Shown here: positions 5,772-40,901 of the stretch, piece by piece
Numbering within the stretch: the first letter of the stretch is position 1
Layout of the letters: each line of letters starts with the position of its first letter
Origin: a virus
Lineage: Duplodnaviria > Heunggongvirae > Uroviricota > Caudoviricetes
Length of the DNA: 40,901 nucleotides
IMG/VR virus record: IMGVR_UViG_2563366888_000019
Location: 1-40,901 of that record
Reading direction: 5' to 3' (one strand)
The notes under the pieces: generated by a model
Database searches by the model: none
Told to the model about the DNA's origin: nothing
Seen by the model: only the letters and a program-made list of their open reading frames with translations
Translations under genes and position numbers: made by a program

Positions 5772-5874
5772 GTTAAATCTCCAGATAGTCGCAGCACCCG
5801 TTGCGCCGCATATCTGGCTATTCTATTACCTGAAAAACCACATATGGATAGAAAGACTGTGAATACGAATAGAT

Positions 5875-5891
5875 ATTACCTTTCAGGTAAT
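5875..5891. promoter_or_regulatory. operator-like 17-bp palindrome ATTACCTTTCAGGTAAT (site 1, perfect)
   Basis: perfect 7-3-7 inverted repeat in divergent intergenic region between tailspike and antirepressor-like gene. Confidence 0.6.
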
Positions 5892-5927
5892 TTGCAAAAC
5901 GTGCTGGATAGCAAACAAATTATTTGC

Positions 5928-5947
5928 TACTGTATAAATATACAGTT
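5928..5947. promoter_or_regulatory. LexA (SOS) box TACTGTATAAATATACAGTT
   Basis: CTGT-N8-ACAG, 18/20 match to the E. coli consensus as recalled; ends 20 bp upstream of ATG 5967. Confidence 0.7.
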
Positions 5948-5966
5948 ATTGCATGGAGAAGATAAG

Positions 5967-6224
5967 ATGCAGCAGTATCACTATCCACTGGAAGACGGAT
6001 TTACCGAAAGGATTCACACGCCGGGAGGCGTCAGGTCACTGGTGGAGGGATCGCATTTGATGAAATTACTCCGGGATCTCGATAAGGATGGATTTAATGT
6101 CGATGGCCCACTTGCCGAACTGACTGCACTGATTAACTACGTCACCAGCTCACAGATGTCTATGCAGGATCTGCAAACACATCTCGACTATTGTGCCGAA
6201 CAATTACGAAAACAAACCACATAA
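5967..6224 (+). CDS. small antirepressor-like protein (85 aa), probably SOS-controlled
   Basis: GGAGAAG SD; LexA box in its promoter; ~40% identity by eye to the C-terminal domain of the Bro-N protein at 7693..8388. Confidence 0.55.
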   Translation: MQQYHYPLEDGFTERIHTPGGVRSLVEGSHLMKLLRDLDKDGFNVDGPLAELTALINYVTSSQMSMQDLQTHLDYCAEQLRKQTT

Positions 6225-6230
6225 AGAAAA

Positions 6231-6246
6231 GGCCGCGAAAGCGGCC
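6231..6246. terminator. hairpin GGCCGCGAAAGCGGCC (copy 1 of 2)
   Basis: perfect 6-bp stem with GAAA loop between convergent genes; T-run on minus strand; identical copy at 9289..9304. Confidence 0.55.
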
Positions 6247-6247
6247 A

Positions 6248-6754
6248 TTAACAGTCGTAAAATTCTGGGTCCCACAAACTTGCATCGCGCGGCATGGATT
6301 CTAACTTTTTCAGCCGCAAAATTCTGTCACACTCGACAACTAATTTTTGCTTCTGCTCGTCAATTTCTACTGTCTTATGCGCTGGTTCATCCCAATAATC
6401 CAGAAGGAAGGCATGGCGTTCAGATGTGACCAGATAAATCACATACACGTCACTGGTTGGGATCTTTTTATGCTTGTTAGTGGTCTTGTCTTTCTTCCCA
6501 GACGCCCAGTTTTTCCAGCATTGTTCCGTACCGCTCTCACCAAACTTGTCAGTATAGTTTCCGATGTTTAAGTGAACGTGGCGTATGTGATATTCCAGCA
6601 TCTCTTTCGGTGGATCTCGAAACAGAGTGTCCTTTCCGAAATCCTTATGATGACCGTAGCGCCAGTGATCTATGAACGCGTTTTTGATAGGTATTAGCTC
6701 AGGGTCCTTCCCAAAAATTCCAGGGTGAACCAACCCCTGGAATTTATTCGGCAT
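6248..6754 (-). CDS. YafO-toxin-like protein, candidate toxin/abortive-infection effector (168 aa)
   Basis: IFGKD, YHIRHVHL and DEPAHK segments resemble the YafO mRNA interferase family as recalled from memory; overlaps upstream gene by 11 bp. Confidence 0.45.
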   Translation of the reverse strand: MPNKFQGLVHPGIFGKDPELIPIKNAFIDHWRYGHHKDFGKDTLFRDPPKEMLEYHIRHVHLNIGNYTDKFGESGTEQCWKNWASGKKDKTTNKHKKIPTSDVYVIYLVTSERHAFLLDYWDEPAHKTVEIDEQKQKLVVECDRILRLKKLESMPRDASLWDPEFYDC

Positions 6755-7271
6755 CGTCGTAGAGCTCCTGAGCCATGTCTTCAGCAGTGCGTGCAAACAT
6801 CCTGCGCGAGATTGCATGGGATTTCTCTACGGACATCTTTGGGACCTCATGCATAACAAGTTGATGAGTTTTCTCATCAACTTGAAGTGGCTTGTATAAA
6901 CGTTGCCACCTTTCGTTAATTTTATCCTTAAAGCCAGCGAAACCACTTTCCTGACTCTTGTATCCAAAATGAGATAAAGCCAAATTCCTTTCCATTTCAT
7001 TCCTAATGTACTCAGCAAGGTTGCAGTGGAATACTTCCCCTTGTTTTTTTAGGCATGCTTCATGGTCTGTAACACTGTGACGGCTCTCATATAAGTAAAT
7101 GCGATAGGAATTTTTATTATCCTCTTCTTCATAATTTCTAATCGCATCAGCAGTTGCCATAGCTGCAGCATAAGCGGCTGCTTCAATCACCATCTCTTGC
7201 TCTTTTTCTTTTTCAGGCCTTTTCAAGGCAAAGCGTCTATGCCTCATCGCTGTAACTCTCTTCGTGTTCAT
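6744..7271 (-). CDS. hypothetical protein, upstream partner of YafO-like gene (175 aa)
   Basis: AT-rich ORF, ATG at 7271 preceded by palindrome site 2; no recognisable motif. Confidence 0.5.
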   Translation of the reverse strand: MNTKRVTAMRHRRFALKRPEKEKEQEMVIEAAAYAAAMATADAIRNYEEEDNKNSYRIYLYESRHSVTDHEACLKKQGEVFHCNLAEYIRNEMERNLALSHFGYKSQESGFAGFKDKINERWQRLYKPLQVDEKTHQLVMHEVPKMSVEKSHAISRRMFARTAEDMAQELYDDAE

Positions 7272-7282
7272 GGGCACCCCCA

Positions 7283-7299
7283 ACTACCTTTAGGGTAAA
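7283..7299. promoter_or_regulatory. operator-like palindrome ACTACCTTTAGGGTAAA (site 2, degenerate)
   Basis: 12 bp upstream of ATG of 6744..7271. Confidence 0.45.
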
Positions 7300-7454
7300 C
7301 ATTCTATCGAAAGTATACGCTCACTGGCAAAAAAATAGGCAGGTATTTTCTGAAATGGGATCAATCAAACCACATAGGGTTGAAATGACGTGAGTTATGC
7401 ATTTATCATTACCTTTGCGGTAAATTTACATTGCACTCCTCTTGTGCCATAGTA

Positions 7455-7540
7455 ATCGGGCACTGGCAAAATCCAGTGCCGGGATTGGCGTTCCGGATTA
7501 CTAAAAGGCGCATTCACCGCGCAAGCGGTTTTTTTATGCG
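7455..7540 (+). ncRNA. candidate structured RNA / leader element with terminator
   Basis: 10-bp-stem hairpin CGGGCACTGG-N6-CCAGTGCCGG followed by ACCGC-GCAA-GCGGT plus T7 terminator; no credible ORF. Confidence 0.3.
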
Positions 7541-7692
7541 TATAGCACGGCCACATTCGTATTATGGTGGGCTGTGTGGGGGCACCGAAAGGTGCGCCGG
7601 GTCCTTTTAGCCGGTTACGCCAACCCTGCACAGTTCACCACCAACCGATTGGCGTCGGTAGTGGTGATTAACCAGACTAAAAGGTAACCACT

Positions 7693-8388
7693 ATGACAGC
7701 TACAAAAAGCACGTCCATTTTTTCTTTCGAATCCCAAGCCGATATACGAGTAATCGTCATAAATGGTGAGCCATGGTTTATCGCTTCAGATGTTTGTCGG
7801 GCTATAGGCATAGCAAACCATCGAGATGCTGTTCGAAAACTTGATGATGATGAGAAGGGCGTCGCTTCAACCGACACCCCTGGCGGTGAGCAAGAATCGA
7901 TCATCATCTCCGAGTCAGGCCTCTACACACTGATCCTCCGCTGCCGCGACGCAGTGACACCAGGCACTATCCCCTACCGCTTTCGTAAATGGGTTACAGG
8001 TGAGGTTCTTCCTCAGATCCGCCGCACCGGAAGTTACATTAAAAACTCGCTCCCGCAGGAAGAACGCATAAAGATGGTTGCCGACCAGGTAGCCAACGCC
8101 ACAGCATCAGCAGTGATGCAGGCAATGAAGATAGAGAACAAAACCTACAGCGCCCCACTGAAGCCCGGCTACCGCAGTTTGATTCACTCGCCGTCTGGTG
8201 TTCTCGGCCTGACGGAGAACTCACTGCTGATGAATCTGCTGAACCAGTTACAGGAAGACGGGCACGACGTATCGGGCGCGGCGGCGGAGCTGACCACCAT
8301 GTTCTGCTACATCGTCGGTGTGAGTAAATGCCTGCGTGATATCCAGACCCACGCGGAATACATCAACGACAAAGCAGGGTTCTTCTGA
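7693..8388 (+). CDS. Bro-N domain antirepressor-type protein (231 aa)
   Basis: N-terminal region matches BRO-N pattern; C-terminal domain paralogous to 5967..6224; AAAAGG SD. Confidence 0.7.
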   Translation: MTATKSTSIFSFESQADIRVIVINGEPWFIASDVCRAIGIANHRDAVRKLDDDEKGVASTDTPGGEQESIIISESGLYTLILRCRDAVTPGTIPYRFRKWVTGEVLPQIRRTGSYIKNSLPQEERIKMVADQVANATASAVMQAMKIENKTYSAPLKPGYRSLIHSPSGVLGLTENSLLMNLLNQLQEDGHDVSGAAAELTTMFCYIVGVSKCLRDIQTHAEYINDKAGFF

Positions 8389-8458
8389 CAGCGGCGGCAC
8401 AGGGATGTGCCTTTAAATAATTCGGTACAGATTGCAGACAGGGGGTGAATAGAGTACT

Positions 8459-8475
8459 ATTACCCCAAAGGTAAA
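8459..8475. promoter_or_regulatory. operator-like palindrome ATTACCCCAAAGGTAAA (site 3)
   Basis: 26 bp upstream of ATG 8501. Confidence 0.5.
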
Positions 8476-8500
8476 CCGAGAGTTTACATGAGGGGGAAAC

Positions 8501-8689
8501 ATGGAAATCAACATCATTACATTGCTGAAGGCCATTATTGGCGGAGCGGGCTTAGGCTTTGCCCTACCAGGCGGATTATCTTTCCTGCTTCCTGCTTTTA
8601 CTGTTACAGCTGGGATAGCCTATGCATTTGCTGTGGCTGGTGCTGTTGCACTCCCTGCTATCTATGCCGCAAAGAAGTTAGCCAACTAA
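8501..8689 (+). CDS. small Gly/Ala-rich hydrophobic peptide (62 aa), possible membrane-active peptide or toxin
   Basis: GGGGG SD; N-terminal 15 aa end in GG (double-glycine-leader-like), rest is GxxxG-rich hydrophobic with KKLAN tail. Confidence 0.45.
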   Translation: MEINIITLLKAIIGGAGLGFALPGGLSFLLPAFTVTAGIAYAFAVAGAVALPAIYAAKKLAN

Positions 8690-8690
8690 A

Positions 8691-9023
8691 ATGCCTGATT
8701 TATCTTGGCTTGCGCCCAGAGATGCACAGCAATTGACAAGGTTTTATTTCATACTGTGCATTGCTTATCTTGCTGTTCATCTGATATGGGATGCCGTTTG
8801 CAAAGATACGCCTCCTTTTTCTTTGGATAAGTTGCAATACAAGATGAATGAGGTTTATTCATCATCTACTTTTGCAACCAGCGCATTCTTCATTGTTATT
8901 CTGTTCGATATGAAGAATCCACTGAGAACTTCAGATGCTTTCATATTCCCATTAATTATTGCTGCTCTAACTGGCTTTATGATCTCATTATCAGCAATAG
9001 TGCCAAAGAAAGTAAATAACTGA
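8691..9023 (+). CDS. 3-TM membrane protein (110 aa), possible immunity or partner protein
   Basis: start 2 nt after stop of 8501..8689; three hydrophobic helices; terminator follows. Confidence 0.5.
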   Translation: MPDLSWLAPRDAQQLTRFYFILCIAYLAVHLIWDAVCKDTPPFSLDKLQYKMNEVYSSSTFATSAFFIVILFDMKNPLRTSDAFIFPLIIAALTGFMISLSAIVPKKVNN

Positions 9024-9026
9024 ATA

Positions 9027-9049
9027 AGCCCGCGTTGCGGGCTTTTTTA
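9027..9049 (+). terminator. rho-independent terminator
   Basis: AAGCCCGC-GTTG-GCGGGCTT stem-loop plus T6. Confidence 0.7.
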
Positions 9050-9120
9050 TGGACGAAACAAAAGTCAGTGCTACACTCATTGACGCCACATTGAGGTGGT
9101 TTATAGATGGAAATTTCACA

Positions 9121-9282
9121 ATGAAAAAAGCATTTGCTGCACTGTTCGTTTTGTTGTCTCTGGTAGCTTCAACTCAGGCCTTTGCCGGTCGTTGTCAGCA
9201 CGACAGCGACACTGCTGCTGACGGCTCCCGCTGCGGTGGGCGTTCTGCGGATTCCCGCCCAGGCGGCGGTGGCATTCGTTAA
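9121..9282 (+). CDS. small secreted Gly/Arg-rich peptide precursor (53 aa)
   Basis: Sec-type signal peptide ending AFA; mature ~31 aa with 2 Cys; TTGACG-N16-TATAGA promoter-like upstream; weak SD. Confidence 0.35.
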   Translation: MKKAFAALFVLLSLVASTQAFAGRCQHDSDTAADGSRCGGRSADSRPGGGGIR

Positions 9283-9288
9283 AAACAA

Positions 9289-9304
9289 GGCCGCGAAAGC
9301 GGCC
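9289..9304. terminator. hairpin GGCCGCGAAAGCGGCC (copy 2 of 2)
   Basis: identical to 6231..6246; between convergent 9121..9282 and 9319..9768. Confidence 0.55.
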
Positions 9305-9318
9305 TGTGACATGTCACG

Positions 9319-9768
9319 CTACTTGCGAAATCTTTCTTTACCCTTCCAGCCAGTAGATGTTAGTTCAGGATGAATGGTTCCCAATATAAAGCCAACCATA
9401 GCGGAGCGAGGATCTTCTATTTTATCCGTTAATTCTTCGGCATAACTCACAGGCAACCAAGCAACAAGATCACCAATCCTCAGCTTTGGTCCTTTGCTGT
9501 AAGATGAATCGGCAATAACAAAAAATCCACCATCAGCTGAGCACACCTTCAGCATTGCCCTTTGTCTTCCAGAATCTAGCAAAACTGGCTGTTCCCCACT
9601 TGGACCAGGTATGATGATGGCTGGCATTGGTTTATTGGCTGAAAGGCTTGTGTCAAGATACTTACACGCATACTCAAAAGCTGAAAAGTTATCCTTAAAG
9701 ATAAGAGGTTGAATTTTATTGCTAACCTCCTTACCACCGATTAATCTGTTGATCATCTTCTTGAACAT
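9319..9768 (-). CDS. hypothetical protein (149 aa)
   Basis: AGGTGA SD before ATG 9768; no recognisable motif; part of cargo island. Confidence 0.5.
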   Translation of the reverse strand: MFKKMINRLIGGKEVSNKIQPLIFKDNFSAFEYACKYLDTSLSANKPMPAIIIPGPSGEQPVLLDSGRQRAMLKVCSADGGFFVIADSSYSKGPKLRIGDLVAWLPVSYAEELTDKIEDPRSAMVGFILGTIHPELTSTGWKGKERFRK

Positions 9769-9780
9769 AAAGGTCACCTA

Positions 9781-23347: not shown

Positions 23348-23644
23348 TCACTCCTGTTCACTGGCCTCTTTGGCCATCTTCAAATACTGTTCAGGGCAAT
23401 GCGCCATAACGCGCTGAAACAGTTCCAGCGCCAGATTGCGTTGCCCCTCATTAAATGCCATTGCCATAGCGTCCATCGGTGAGATAGCGGAAAACACACG
23501 GCCTTTCTCCAGCACCGACCAGACAACGCGACGCCCCTGTTCACTGCTCATGACAAAGCGAATGTCATCAATTTCACGCTGTGCCATGTCACGTTGCTTA
23601 CGGGCGTTTTCTTCTTTCAGTTGATCATCTTCGTAATCTGTCAT
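23348..23644 (-). CDS. hypothetical head-module protein (98 aa)
   Basis: ATG overlaps portal stop. Confidence 0.45.
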   Translation of the reverse strand: MTDYEDDQLKEENARKQRDMAQREIDDIRFVMSSEQGRRVVWSVLEKGRVFSAISPMDAMAMAFNEGQRNLALELFQRVMAHCPEQYLKMAKEASEQE

Positions 23645-25541: not shown

Positions 25542-25609
25542 ATCAATGACTCCGTACGCAATTAAATTATTACCAATTTAACCACATATGATTTATTTAT
25601 CGTAGATGG

Positions 25610-25968: not shown

Positions 25969-26045
25969 GTGGCATTAGCTCAGTTGGACAGAGCAACCGC
26001 CTTCTAAGCGGTTGGTCGCAGGTTCGAATCCTGCATGCCACGCCA
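25969..26045 (+). tRNA. tRNA-Arg (anticodon UCU)
   Basis: 77 nt; acceptor stem GTGGCAT/ATGCCAC, T-loop GGTTCGAATCC, anticodon loop CTTCTAA, discriminator G and encoded CCA; close to host argU-type tRNA as recalled. Confidence 0.85.
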
Positions 26046-26615: not shown

Positions 26616-26635
26616 CACATTGACATGTCACAAAC

Positions 26636-29061: not shown

Positions 29062-29078
29062 AACACCTTCGTGACATG

Positions 29079-29417
29079 TCACACTATTAATTTCGTTTCA
29101 TGCCAGCCTTTGGTCACCCAGCATTGCGAGTCACCATTACACGGGCATGAATTAACTGGAACTCTCTCGCCGCACTTACCGCAACGTTTTCTGCTGATCG
29201 ATTTTATACGCCCGCGCACCCGGGCATCATCCTGGCGGATCAGCAGCGCGATGTACTCGGCCATTTCATAGGGATCTCGACCAGGGCGCCGGGCGGCGCA
29301 GTTCCGCTCCAGCATTTCAATTTCCTGAGCATCAAGCACAATCTCCAGCTTACGCACACCAGATGCAGCTTGTCTGGCTCTCTGAGCGGCTTTGCGCTCT
29401 GCTGCTGATTTAGCCAT
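29079..29417 (-). CDS. hypothetical protein with C-terminal Cys-rich zinc-ribbon-like motif (112 aa)
   Basis: basic Ala/Arg-rich N-terminus; CGKCGERVPVNSCPCNG. Confidence 0.45.
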   Translation of the reverse strand: MAKSAAERKAAQRARQAASGVRKLEIVLDAQEIEMLERNCAARRPGRDPYEMAEYIALLIRQDDARVRGRIKSISRKRCGKCGERVPVNSCPCNGDSQCWVTKGWHETKLIV

Positions 29418-29691
29418 CAATATTTACCTTTATCGCGTATACCTTTACCGGTTTATCACCGAAGTGTGGATGTATGATTGTCTTGATTTCATACCCTTCA
29501 TACGGGACGTCTATTCTGCGACTGGAATCGTCGCGCTTCGGATATCCCTTTGTGATAATCAGTCGGTCATACTCCCGGAACATAATTCGCTTATTCCAGT
29601 AGTCATTACACAGGCGATACTCTTCCGTTTTATCTCCGCGAATCATGGCATCGAAGTATTCACCTTTGAGGATAAGTTGCAGGTTAGCCAC
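29410..29691 (-). CDS. hypothetical protein (93 aa)
   Basis: GTG start 7 nt after AAGGAG. Confidence 0.45.
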   Translation of the reverse strand: MANLQLILKGEYFDAMIRGDKTEEYRLCNDYWNKRIMFREYDRLIITKGYPKRDDSSRRIDVPYEGYEIKTIIHPHFGDKPVKVYAIKVNIDG

Positions 29692-35580: not shown

Positions 35581-35880
35581 ATGAACGTTAATCAGCAGAA
35601 AAATCTTCAAAAAATCATGCTGGCATTCGACAAGGACTACCGCCTGTCAGAACAGCTATATGACCGACAAGTTGAACTGATTGAGAGCATCCGACTTCAT
35701 CAACTGTCCTCAACTTTTGACGTTGTAACAGGCAAAGGCGTTCGTCAGGAAGTACTGGAGGCTGCTAAAGACAGCCCTGAGTTCGAAGAACTGATGGATG
35801 CCTATCGGCGAGAGGCAATGGCAATTATCGCCCGCTGGGATCTGGCGGATCAGCTTGATGGACAGAGGGACGCGGCATGA
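35581..35880 (+). CDS. hypothetical early protein (99 aa)
   Basis: GGGAGGG SD; stop overlaps next start (ATGA). Confidence 0.5.
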   Translation: MNVNQQKNLQKIMLAFDKDYRLSEQLYDRQVELIESIRLHQLSSTFDVVTGKGVRQEVLEAAKDSPEFEELMDAYRREAMAIIARWDLADQLDGQRDAA

Positions 35881-36698
35881 AACCGGGAATTTATTTCGAC
35901 ATCAGCAACGAAGACTACCACGCCGGTGACGGCGTGAGTAAGTCGCAACTGGACATGGTTGCCAAGAATCCGGCGCTTCTTAAATGGGTCCAGGCAGCAC
36001 CAGAAGACGAAGAGAAAAAGTCTGCACTGGATATGGGAACCGCATTGCACTGTCTGCTTCTGGAGCCTGGAGAGTTCGACAAACGCTTCATTGTTTCACC
36101 GAAATTCGATCGTCGGACGAAACAAGGTAAAGCTGACGAAGAGGAATTTCTTCGTGATGTGGCGGATATGGGGATTACGGTACTTGATGCCGAGCAGTGG
36201 CGGAAACTGGAGCTGATGCGTGATAGCGCAATGGCTCACCCGGCGGCACGCTGGATGCTGGAAGCACCTGGTTACTGCGAAGCATCAATGTACTGGAACG
36301 ATGAAGAGACGGGGGAGTTGTGCCGAATTCGTCCAGACAAATGGCTGAACGAGCACAACGTGATCGTCGACGTGAAAAAGGTTGCAGATATGGACCGTTT
36401 TGCACGCCACATCGAGGAATTCCGCTACCACGTGCAGGACGCAATGTACCGCGAAGGCGCAATGAGGGTTACTGGTCAGCCGCATGGTTTTTTCTTTCTT
36501 GCCGTGAGCGAAAGCATTGATTGTGGTCGGTATCCGGTACGCGTGTTCGAGCTGGATGCGCCGGATGTCGATGCCGGGCACGCTCTGTTCCGCCGGGATC
36601 TGAATACCTATCACGAATGCCGCATAAATGATGAATGGGGCGGTGTGGAAATCATTAAACGCCCTGAGTGGGCACGCAAACAGGATATGTACATATGA
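35877..36698 (+). CDS. PD-(D/E)XK-type exonuclease, partner of annealing protein (273 aa)
   Basis: RPDKW...IVDVKKV resembles a PD...(D/E)xK nuclease core; immediately upstream of and overlapping Bet/RecT gene. Confidence 0.6.
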   Translation: MKPGIYFDISNEDYHAGDGVSKSQLDMVAKNPALLKWVQAAPEDEEKKSALDMGTALHCLLLEPGEFDKRFIVSPKFDRRTKQGKADEEEFLRDVADMGITVLDAEQWRKLELMRDSAMAHPAARWMLEAPGYCEASMYWNDEETGELCRIRPDKWLNEHNVIVDVKKVADMDRFARHIEEFRYHVQDAMYREGAMRVTGQPHGFFFLAVSESIDCGRYPVRVFELDAPDVDAGHALFRRDLNTYHECRINDEWGGVEIIKRPEWARKQDMYI

Positions 36699-37636
36699 GC
36701 AACGACATCGCAAACATCAACGCACCAGTAGACACAGCAATCGCTGGAACTGCTGCAACTATTTTCAGCCCAGACGGCTTGAACCAACTGATGAAATTCG
36801 CCGAGGTAATGGCGCAAAGCCGCGTAACGGTACCGGCGCACCTCGCCGGGAAACCAGCTGATTGCATGGCCGTGGCAATGCAGGCTGCGCAGTGGGGAAT
36901 GAACCCGTTTGCCGTGGCTCAGAAAACCCATGTTGTGAACGGCACGCTAGGTTATGAAGCCCAATTAGTAAACGCAGTTATCTCAACGATGTCGCCAACA
37001 AAAGATCGCATCAACTACGAGTGGTTCGGGCCGTGGGAACGCGTGATCGGTAAGTTTGTTGAGAAAACATCCAAAAACGGCAATCCATATATCGCACCAG
37101 GCTGGACTCTAAAAGACGAAGAAGGCTGCGGTGTTCGCGTATGGGCAACCATGAAGGGCGAGGATCAACCTCGAGTGCTTGAGTTAATGCTGTCTCAAGC
37201 ACAGGTAAGAAACTCCACACTTTGGGCCAGTGATCCGAAACAACAACTCGCATACCTTGCGACAAAACGCTGGTCTCGCTTGCACTGTCCTGACGTAATC
37301 ATGGGCGTCTACACACCAGACGAATTACAGGAAACGGCACCGCGCGTTGAGCGAGACATTACTCCGCAAACGACCACTGCTGCGGGAATGAACAGTCTGA
37401 TCAACGCTAAACCAGTGAAAAAGCCTGATGAGCAAACTCGTAAAGCGGATAGCCGTGATCCAGAAGAAATGCTGATGGCCTTTACCAGCGCAGCGATGAA
37501 TTACAGCACTGTCTCCGAACTGAATAAGGCTTACAAATACATTGCACAAAAACTTTCAGATGATGACGAACTGCTGGCAAAAGCCACCGACGTTTACAGC
37601 GTTCGTCGGGAAGAATTAAACGAAACATCTATGTAA
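36695..37636 (+). CDS. Bet/RecT-family single-strand annealing protein (313 aa)
   Basis: ERDITP segment and overall resemblance to lambda Bet as recalled; exo-SSAP gene pair. Confidence 0.7.
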   Translation: MSNDIANINAPVDTAIAGTAATIFSPDGLNQLMKFAEVMAQSRVTVPAHLAGKPADCMAVAMQAAQWGMNPFAVAQKTHVVNGTLGYEAQLVNAVISTMSPTKDRINYEWFGPWERVIGKFVEKTSKNGNPYIAPGWTLKDEEGCGVRVWATMKGEDQPRVLELMLSQAQVRNSTLWASDPKQQLAYLATKRWSRLHCPDVIMGVYTPDELQETAPRVERDITPQTTTAAGMNSLINAKPVKKPDEQTRKADSRDPEEMLMAFTSAAMNYSTVSELNKAYKYIAQKLSDDDELLAKATDVYSVRREELNETSM

Positions 37637-39644: not shown

Positions 39645-40901
39645 TTATTTATTACTGTCTTCCATCCACCTCTCAAACTTCGACGGGGAGAACGGAATCA
39701 GATCCGTATGCTCCCCATTAATCCAGGAATCAATCATATCGGCCCACTGCTGCAACATGTAGGCGCGCTGTCTGGCGTATTCCGCTTTGTTATATACGGC
39801 GCGCACACCTTTCTGCTCATGTGCCAGAGCCTTTTCAATCCAGTCTGAAGGATAACCAGCCTCATGCAACAACGTACTTGCTGTACGGCGCATATCGTGT
39901 ACGGTGAAGCCCTGAATATGCTCACCATCTTCATTTATTATTTTCACCGTTCTGTCGATCAGAGAGTTCAGCGCGGCATTAGATAATGGCTTCCGGAAAT
40001 TGTAACGACCAGGAACCAGATATTCACTTCCACCAGCGCACATCTGCAACCCGACCAATATATCCTGAGCCTGTTTAGGCAGGTAAATAACGTGCGCCCG
40101 GCTTCCCTTCATGCGGTCTGAAGGAATTGTCCATGTCCATTTTTTAAAATCTATTTCATCCCACGTTGCGTTGGTGAATTCGCCTTTACGAACCATAGTG
40201 ATAAGCACCAGCTTTAAAGCCATTTTCATAGTGCCCATAGCACCAATGGCATCCAGCGTGCGGAAGAACAGGCCAATTTCTTCTGGTGTCAGTGTTCGCT
40301 CTCGTGGTTTAAATATGGCGATAGACGAAGGTTTAATGTCAGCCGCAGGATTAAACAAACCATGACCACGGTCATTGGCGTGACGGTATACGCTGCTGAT
40401 GATCTCCCTGGCCTGTACTGCTGTTGCCCGACCACCGCGTTCGACAATCCGGTCACACAAATCACGAACCATCGATGTGGTAATTTCAGCCATCATTTTG
40501 TTGCCAAGAACCGGAAGTATGTCACGGTCGATCACCGCCTGCTTCATTGCGCGGGTACTGTCAGCCAGGATGACGTGTTTCATATAACTGTCGGTATGTA
40601 CCGCAAACGTCTCAGCACCACGAATCTTTTTGATACCGTCACGTTTAGCCGCAGCCGGTGACTGGCCTGCTTTAAGCAGCTTCTTTGCAGCAATCAGTTC
40701 TTCCCGCGCTTCTGCCAGGCTGATACCGTCACGCCCATACTGCCCGATTACCAGTGTTTCGCGGCGACCGTTGATACGGTAGTCATAGCGAAACGAGACC
40801 GTGCCTGACGTAAGTACAGCTACATACAGCCCGTCACGATCGGAGACCTTGTACAGTTTGTCCTGCGGCTTGAGGTTTTTTAATTTTGTATCGGTAAGCA
40901 C
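39645..40901 (-). CDS. int: tyrosine integrase, 5' end at or beyond window edge (at least 418 aa)
   Basis: C-terminal H-x-x-R (HDMRRTAST) and catalytic Tyr region (VRAVYNKAEY); first codon in window is GTG at the edge; convergent with phosphatase gene. Confidence 0.85.
   Translation of the reverse strand: MLTDTKLKNLKPQDKLYKVSDRDGLYVAVLTSGTVSFRYDYRINGRRETLVIGQYGRDGISLAEAREELIAAKKLLKAGQSPAAAKRDGIKKIRGAETFAVHTDSYMKHVILADSTRAMKQAVIDRDILPVLGNKMMAEITTSMVRDLCDRIVERGGRATAVQAREIISSVYRHANDRGHGLFNPAADIKPSSIAIFKPRERTLTPEEIGLFFRTLDAIGAMGTMKMALKLVLITMVRKGEFTNATWDEIDFKKWTWTIPSDRMKGSRAHVIYLPKQAQDILVGLQMCAGGSEYLVPGRYNFRKPLSNAALNSLIDRTVKIINEDGEHIQGFTVHDMRRTASTLLHEAGYPSDWIEKALAHEQKGVRAVYNKAEYARQRAYMLQQWADMIDSWINGEHTDLIPFSPSKFERWMEDSNK

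Follow-up and report, generated by a model that had tools for sequence, protein, structure and literature searches.

In the moron model of Hendrix and Juhala, a promoter, a gene and a terminator are inserted between conserved genes of a phage genome. Short conserved boundary sequences, or linkers, have been proposed to mediate the exchange of phage modules (Susskind-Botstein modular theory, cited in PMC3029335), and a conserved terminator-like motif downstream of tailspike genes has been proposed to be a recombination hotspot (PMC10408124). Here we analysed a DNA stretch of 40,901 nucleotides, IMG/VR virus record IMGVR_UViG_2563366888_000019 (hereafter the window), which by its sequence is a Uetakevirus (epsilon15/phiV10-like) temperate phage. 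The hairpin-forming 16-mer GGCCGCGAAAGCGGCC occurs in this 40.9-kb window in two exact copies on the plus strand, at 6231-6246 and 9289-9304, with a block of cargo genes between them. At the position equivalent to the right copy, the GenBank record of phiV10 (NC_007804.2, 19505-19522) annotates a terminator on the same strand and with identical flanks, which closes the late operon. We conclude that the hairpin pair is a case of ordinary, cleanly resolved phage mosaicism, in which a genus-conserved terminator stands at both edges of a moron island. Literature searches turned up no account of this pair of hairpins.

Exact matching and the map of open reading frames (ORFs) agreed with the original prediction that two perfect hairpin copies, at 6231 and 9289, each lie between convergent genes. 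The left copy is located between ORFs 5844-6224 (plus strand) and 6248-6817 (minus strand), and the right copy between ORFs 9049-9282 (plus strand) and 9319-9777 (minus strand). No third match to the 16-mer was found anywhere in the window, even when two mismatches or any loop were allowed (chance expectation 0.02). At both copies the stop codon of the plus-strand gene lies 6 nt ahead of the hairpin, and the similarity between the copies extends over TAA, six A-rich bases and the hairpin itself (27 of 32 positions; repeat family D1). Outside this stretch the left and right flanks are unrelated, and thus give no indication that a longer segment was duplicated recently.

Both copies have the anatomy of a terminator on the minus strand, where the 6-bp all-GC stem and tetraloop (6231-6246 and 9289-9304) are followed by U-rich tracts. 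The A-rich tracts at 6222-6230 and 9280-9288 read on that strand as UUUUCUUUA and UUGUUUUUA, giving GGCCGCUUUCGCGGCC-UUUUCUUUA at the left and GGCCGCUUUCGCGGCC-UUGUUUUUA at the right, and a consensus scan listed both as leftward terminator-like; the minus-strand terminator stems that it called have 6 to 7 bp of GC, a tetraloop and a U-tract. The stem-loop alone folds with about -12 kcal/mol, the right copy reaches -14 with one extra pair, and the overall range is -11.6 to -14.3. The stop codon of ORF 6248-6817, the YafO-like toxin candidate, is 1 nt from the left hairpin, and that of the last gene on the late-operon strand (9319-9777) is 14 nt from the right hairpin. The marks of an intrinsic terminator, namely a GC-rich stem-loop, a U-tract 3' of the stem and a position just past a stop codon, are thus all found on the minus strand.

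The two copies share with the phiV10 terminator the short all-GC stem, the tetraloop and the U-tract after stop codons, and the right copy, the orthologue of the annotated phiV10 element, also has the same sequence and position. Unlike a canonical bidirectional terminator, they have a U-tract on one side only, and the stem is unusually invariant across genera. We consider it probable that both hairpins are copies of the intrinsic (Rho-independent) terminator found at the 3' end of the late operon in Uetakevirus-type phages, and from the anatomy observed at both copies and its conservation across the family we infer that transcription actually ends at both. The left copy would end a leftward moron consisting of a promoter, the two-gene YafO-like operon and the hairpin, and the right copy would end late (structural) transcription of the ~20-kb late operon. 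Together they would block leftward transcripts from running antisense into the rightward cargo, the gp19-like gene and the tailspike genes.

In the more distant relatives L089 (6988-8273) and L034, a YafO-like operon on the opposite strand is followed by the same hairpin with a T-run, and a small peptide gene and a second hairpin lie 253 bp further on. The T-run on the other side in L089 indicates that the same hairpin serves either strand, depending on the side of the A/T-tract. We also considered whether the YafO-like module had imported the hairpin as its own terminator and rejected this idea: in L089 the module is inverted while the hairpin loop keeps the orientation of the backbone.

A scan of IMG/VR for the 16-mer returned more than 119 contigs, which were sorted by their flanks. 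The right-copy context consists of the end of the small peptide gene, AAAAACAA, the hairpin, a T, the palindrome GTGACATGTCAC and variable sequence, and the left-copy context of the end of the gp19-like gene, the hairpin and the YafO-like module. In a hybrid class, which represents empty sites, one hairpin alone connects the gp19-like end with the palindrome and late operon. The remaining contigs were unrelated phages of low GC content, where a T-run follows the same hairpin, which evidently acts there as a generic plus-strand terminator, and chance matches in high-GC contigs. The stem GGCCGC/GCGGCC is invariant in relatives from E. coli, Salmonella, Enterobacter, Klebsiella and other Enterobacterales, and the same stem is present in relatives that were reached independently of the hairpin, namely Tyrion (Enterobacter), Klebsiella phage ST512-KPC3phi13.3, Salmonella PAT1 and VB_ST_E15. 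Of 122 sites with the 3' arm and the palindrome, about 95% have a complementary 5' arm and all have an A-rich left flank, and the loops are of at least 15 kinds, including GAAA, TTCG, TATT, AAGA, TTTT, TAGA and GAGA. A free loop combined with a fixed stem and a retained U-tract is, in sequence terms, the pattern of a terminator under selection.

In species-representative bacterial genomes, only Enterobacterales had the complete hairpin-palindrome composite (Klebsiella, Citrobacter, Kluyvera, Buttiauxella, Scandinavium, Pseudocitrobacter and Ca. Erwinia). A scan of the same genomes for the 3' arm plus the palindrome gave 45 matches, 36 of which lacked the 5' arm; these are at chance level and mostly in high-GC genomes.

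The perfect palindrome GTGACATGTCAC at 9306-9317 follows almost always directly after the right copy in relatives and is conserved beside the hairpin across genera. It occurs four times in the window, with 0.13 expected: exactly at 9306-9317 and 29071-29082, and with one mismatch at 26620-26631 and 23581-23592. These copies lie beside the right hairpin, in the 20-nt gap between a regulator-like ORF (29079-29420, minus strand) and the terminase small-subunit gene, beside the terminator after the terminase large-subunit gene and, in one case, within an ORF; in phiV10 and Tyrion the palindrome occupies the same operon positions. One possibility is a protein-binding or RNA site by which the boundaries of the late operon are marked. 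The deposited linear records of phiV10 and Tyrion are both cut within a copy of the palindrome, and we considered whether it might be a terminase/cos cleavage site giving recombinogenic breaks near the hairpin. This evidence from the record cuts was rejected. Tyrion is reported to be circularly permuted with terminal redundancy (PMC5754475), and the starts of the two records are therefore conventions.

To describe how the cargo varies, architectures were tabulated twice, in the relatives found through the hairpin and in an unbiased set of the 80 closest gp19-like relatives in IMG/VR. In many relatives the YafO-like module is replaced by what we call the alternative module, the leftward gene annotated beside the left hairpin in phage TL-2011b. 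The check that had been proposed, to look for the hairpin at empty sites of related phages, was positive: 12 of the 80 relatives have an empty site, as do at least 45 of 5,426 complete E. coli genomes. The empty site consists of the gp19-like stop codon, an A-tract of about 6 nt, the hairpin, 1-3 nt, GTGACATGTCAC, 1-2 nt and the stop codon of the last late gene. It is found in the IMG/VR loci L004, L006 (checked at the ORF level), L010 and L044, in Salmonella epsilon15-type phages and PAT1 (loop TATT), in phage YDC107_2 and in E. coli 2010C_5028. Of the complete E. coli genomes, 479 have the right junction and 58 the gp19-like/hairpin/YafO-like junction.

Beside the empty sites, about 24 of the 80 unbiased relatives have the right hairpin only and about 32 have two hairpins. 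The layout with the right hairpin only comprises the gp19-like gene, the small RNAs (sRNAs), the Bro gene, with or without the small peptide gene, and the hairpin. In the two-hairpin relatives, the left hairpin adjoins the alternative module in about 25 and the YafO-like module in 7. Between the same conserved neighbours, the YafO-like block is thus found in 7 of the 80, the alternative module takes its place in about 25, and the others lack it. The left hairpin occurs in exactly those relatives in which a leftward module of either kind abuts the gp19-like gene; without such a module, the gp19-like gene has another 3' end (allele C) and no such hairpin.

The bracketed contents agree with the original prediction (YafO-like module, Bro-N gene, peptide pair and small secreted peptide gene) and further include isrK and C4 RNAs that it had overlooked. 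Its description of a 3-kb cassette did not hold. The YafO-like or alternative module, the isrK, C4 and Bro-N genes, the peptide pair and the small secreted peptide gene assort independently, and the 3.5-kb interval is covered to at least 80% in only one of the 5,426 genomes. The peptide pair is rare among relatives, and in E. coli strain 2/0 its slot holds a second YafO-family pair. phiV10 lacks the small peptide gene, strain NADC1036 has the small peptide gene only, and the gene on the right-hand side of the palindrome differs greatly between relatives. Rather than one cassette, the interval is a mosaic moron island with at least four slots that are exchanged independently. Nor was the claim that exact identity suggests a recent duplication borne out: the loops differ in 29 of the 32 two-hairpin relatives, the left one being AAGA, TAGA or TCTA and the right one GAAA (TTTT in one). 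Identical loops, as in the window, are the minority state and therefore not evidence of recent duplication.

The YafO-like block fits the moron model in that a promoter-like site, recognized by consensus only, and the hairpin as putative terminator flank both of its genes, and in that it is present or absent among collinear relatives. As in other moron islands, there is a hotspot for cargo, here between the tailspike-side gene and the late operon. It differs from the model in that the terminator of the block is not foreign but a copy of the resident late-operon terminator.

The left copy retains the left flank of the empty site (gp19-like end and A-tract), and the right copy retains its right flank (palindrome and late operon). 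Because the flanks are split between the copies in this way, the cargo together with one hairpin formally corresponds to an insertion into the ancestral site. The ancestral state would be the single hairpin in the tight convergent junction of the simplest relatives. Among the relatives, cargo lies either directly left of the hairpin (sRNAs and Bro) or directly right of it (the YafO-like module, the alternative module and others). The two copies would then stem from unequal or illegitimate recombination between related phages with cargo on opposite sides of the hairpin, which we consider the most likely origin of the two-copy state.

Several observations weigh against the terminator reading or this origin. 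Neither copy has a U-tract on the plus strand, which leaves termination of the gp19-like and small peptide genes unaccounted for. Neither architecture sample contained the postulated parent, in which the YafO-like module would lie between hairpin and palindrome without a second hairpin. All four combinations are seen both of left-flank allele with loop and of loop with right-hand module; this indicates exchanges within the 16-bp element, which a view based on selection only does not predict. Finally, no compensatory stem variants were seen in the relatives compared, and the invariant stem, although in keeping with selection for stability, also fits sequence-specific recognition or recombinational homogenisation.

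A few loci deviate within or around the element itself. In L222 (6265-6280), the loop of the left hairpin is TCTA, the exact inversion of TAGA in the otherwise identical L087, L221 and L229. In L134 (~6657) and L200 (~2212), the 5' arm and loop are replaced by the terminator AAGCCCGCGTTGCGGGCTTTTTT, which is also present at 9026-9044 of the window, and the 3' arm GCGGCC and the palindrome are retained, placing a mosaic breakpoint within the hairpin. A second, inverted Bro/Ant module lies to the right of the palindrome and converges on the hairpin and palindrome in L065, L091, L170, L172, L182, L187, L188, L210 and TL-2011b; in TL-2011b (L123) an Ant gene and an Arc-like repressor gene are found there.

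The main alternative to be weighed is that the hairpin, perhaps with the palindrome, is an active recombination hotspot or linker at which RecT and exonuclease, or template switching driven by the hairpin, join modules. Such a hotspot would yield insertions, deletions, inversions and the two-copy state, and it is compatible with terminator function. The element does resemble the proposed linkers in that many module junctions share one short conserved sequence, around which the flanks reassort: many partners are joined exactly at its edges (at least 5 right-hand partners for the left copy, more than 10 for the right copy with the palindrome), and the left-flank alleles A and B, the loops GAAA and AAGA and the right-hand YafO-like, alternative and empty states occur in all pairwise combinations. 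The breakpoint inside the hairpin of L134 and L200, where the 3' arm alone was kept, and the inverted Bro module copies around the hairpin and palindrome in several relatives point in the same direction. So does the in-place loop inversion from TAGA to TCTA between identical flanks in L222, a change that strand switching at a DNA hairpin characteristically leaves. The phage also has a RecT protein and a PDDEXK exonuclease, and the concept has precedent (PMC3029335; PMC10408124). However, the intergenic space of the empty state is only ~40 nt, nearly all of it hairpin and palindrome, so that viable insertions must land at the edges of the element and selection alone explains the precise junctions. 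In this respect the locus differs from a linker: compact intergenic layout and selection give the same pattern without catalysed recombination. Moreover, other gene boundaries and the unrelated terminator 9026-9044 have breakpoints just as often, and most relatives with Bro cargo lack the left hairpin (allele C). The loops GAAA, GAGA, AAGA and TAGA form a single-step mutational series, and some of the apparent recombinants may therefore be products of recurrent mutation. Homology of 16 to 25 bp is, besides, short for efficient RecT recombination. Taken together, we regard a hotspot as unlikely. We hold it to be distinctly improbable that the hairpin and GTGACATGTCAC form a dedicated cargo-exchange site of Uetakevirus-type phages, at which a DNA hairpin forms in vivo, as the loop inversion of L222 would suggest, and RecT and exonuclease, or template switching, swap, insert, delete or invert morons; if true, the "linker sequence" mechanism long postulated for phage mosaicism would gain a concrete case open to experiment.

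Two other explanations have far less in their favour than the reading of both hairpins as copies of the late-operon terminator. The 3,058-bp interval with one hairpin formally looks like an insertion flanked by 18-bp direct repeats, and single-copy empty sites do exist, as would be expected of a discrete mobile cassette moved by site-specific recombination or transposition, with the hairpin as duplicated target or attC-like site. However, no recombinase or transposase domain was found in any ORF of 6248-9282, the interval was never seen to move as a unit and its modules vary independently. The left end is variable (YafO-like or alternative module) and the right end constant, many relatives have the part with Bro and the small peptide without the left hairpin, and the loops differ in most two-copy relatives, all of which makes a mobile cassette very unlikely. 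The hairpins might also be independent terminators that share their sequence by chance, a GC stem with a GNRA loop being a generic optimum. Here the identical 16-mer is found with a T-run on the plus strand of unrelated low-GC contigs (L019, L022, L030, L046, L054 and L070), so that wide occurrence as a generic terminator elsewhere, which the original prediction had named as speaking against its interpretation, was found in part only. Against chance stand the flanks, which show descent from the single site of the empty relatives (gp19 end and A-tract at the left, palindrome at the right), and the stem, which is invariant across at least four host genera in which the neighbouring genes are only ~70-78% identical. 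This already disfavoured explanation therefore deserves hardly any credence. The original prediction had also taken the identity as a recombination or insertion signature rather than a sign of independent terminators; the two hairpins are indeed copies of one family-wide element, but both have terminator features.

The analysis gives exact boundaries for a hypervariable cargo locus, which is present, in prophages of this type, in about 10% of complete E. coli genomes. Toxin-antitoxin-like pairs, an antirepressor under putative sRNA control and small peptides of the membrane or secreted kind are encoded there. A single conserved terminator would be reused as an insulator on both sides of this locus. 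The hairpin and palindrome provide an anchor for cataloguing prophage cargo and a natural, tolerated insertion site for phiV10-type reporter phages. The locus is one more coincidence of a short conserved terminator with mosaic junctions, and a recombination-promoting role is a testable possibility.

At the left edge of the locus, the gp19-like gene (5844-6224, plus strand; phrog_450) is a homologue of epsilon15 gp19 and phiV10 p24, for which RefSeq uses a shorter form from 5967. Its product has 42% identity over 74 aa with residues 150-223, the C-terminal domain, of the Bro-N antirepressor encoded at 7693-8388. Both genes have the same upstream layout of AAACCACATA, about 41 nt and a TTACC-N5-GGTAA operator, and the homologous proteins and shared layout suggest that the two units are old paralogues.

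The YafO-like toxin candidate is encoded on the minus strand at 6248-6754 (the mechanical ORF extends to 6817) and belongs to phrog_1651. Its RefSeq homologue is annotated as "YafO family toxin", and the Pfam YafO_toxin profile gave 17.6 bits (E=0.004), below the gathering cut-off of 25. NCBIfam gave no match for this candidate, and neither NCBIfam nor PADLOC was informative on the cargo proteins. An upstream partner gene (6744-7271, minus strand; phrog_9503) overlaps the toxin gene. A putative sigma-70-like promoter of the operon lies at 7284-7330 on the minus strand, with TTGCCA, 18 nt and TAGAAT and an operator-like CTACC-N5-GGTAA; the site at 7330-7301 agrees with the consensus at 10 of 12 positions, a consensus match only. 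Further upstream, AATCAAACCACATA (7363-7376, plus strand) is a direct repeat (13 of 14 positions; repeat family D10) of the end of the gp19-like gene at 6210-6223, so that the hairpin and YafO-like block (~1,153 bp) are flanked by a 14-bp repeat. Our first impression was that 7363-7376 is a leftover gp19-like 3' end. It may instead be a promoter element, as AAACCACATA also lies near other operators.

The central slot carries an isrK-like sRNA (7460-7535, plus strand; Rfam 72.3 bits, gathering score 50) with its own plus-strand terminator at 7516-7529, a C4 antisense RNA (7560-7645, plus strand; 77.7 bits, gathering score 45) and the gene of a Bro-N/Ant-type antirepressor (7693-8388, plus strand; Bro-N profile 2.3e-21). 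With isrK-like and C4 RNAs directly upstream of Bro-N/Ant, this arrangement resembles the immI region of P1 and P7, where C4 antisense RNA lies upstream of ant, and Salmonella isrK, and it probably forms a P1 immI-like, sRNA-controlled antirepressor module. The likeness, known here from sequence matches, concerns the cargo and not the hairpin. In phage ZX5, overexpression of ORF4, a homologue of the Bro-N gene, promotes the lytic cycle (PMC9782041). Many Stx phages and E. coli genomes contain the segment 7466-7670 at ~78-84% conservation and have no annotation for it.

Two ORFs for small membrane peptides (8501-8689 and 8691-9023, plus strand) fill the slot 8501-9023, which in relatives holds a second YafO-family pair or is empty. 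They are followed at 9026-9044 on the plus strand by the separate terminator-like hairpin AAGCCCGCGTTGCGGGCTT and TTTTTT, which is a frequent mosaic breakpoint too. The small peptide gene (9049-9282, plus strand; phrog_3117 and phrog_14503, a moron family) probably starts at 9121 and encodes a predicted secreted or membrane-anchored peptide of 53 aa with a signal peptide. A further variable slot, right of the palindrome, is occupied by the gene that comes last on the late-operon strand (9319-9777, minus strand; phrog_9944).

The inverted repeat TTACC-N5-GGTAA occurs 14 times in the window, with 0.5 expected: at 5876, 7284, 7409, 8460, 25632, 28774, 28792, 32225, 32287, 34233, 34570, 34618, 35330 and 35392. 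It is paired in the immunity and replication region and stands once ahead of each cargo transcription unit, and phiV10 has 8 exact copies at corresponding places. It looks like a phage repressor operator, in which case the cargo promoters would be under the control of the prophage repressor. The motif AAACCACATA is found exactly at 5835, 6214, 7367 and 32244 and with one mismatch at 25579, 35372 and 34219 (10 matches with at most one mismatch, 2.7 expected), and it recurs ~40-50 nt from operator-like sites. One copy makes up the last codons of the gp19-like gene. The motif may be a promoter element.

Elsewhere, the window encodes a single integrase (39645-40901) and lambda-P-like and DnaT-like replication proteins. 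The PDDEXK exonuclease (DUF3799; 35877-36698, plus strand) and the RecT-family annealing protein (36668-37636, plus strand) are encoded by separate, overlapping ORFs; the phiV10 equivalent is annotated as a fused RecE-RecT protein. On the plus strand, opposite to that of the late operon, a tRNA-Arg gene (anticodon TCT; 25969-26045) separates the terminase region from the portal region.

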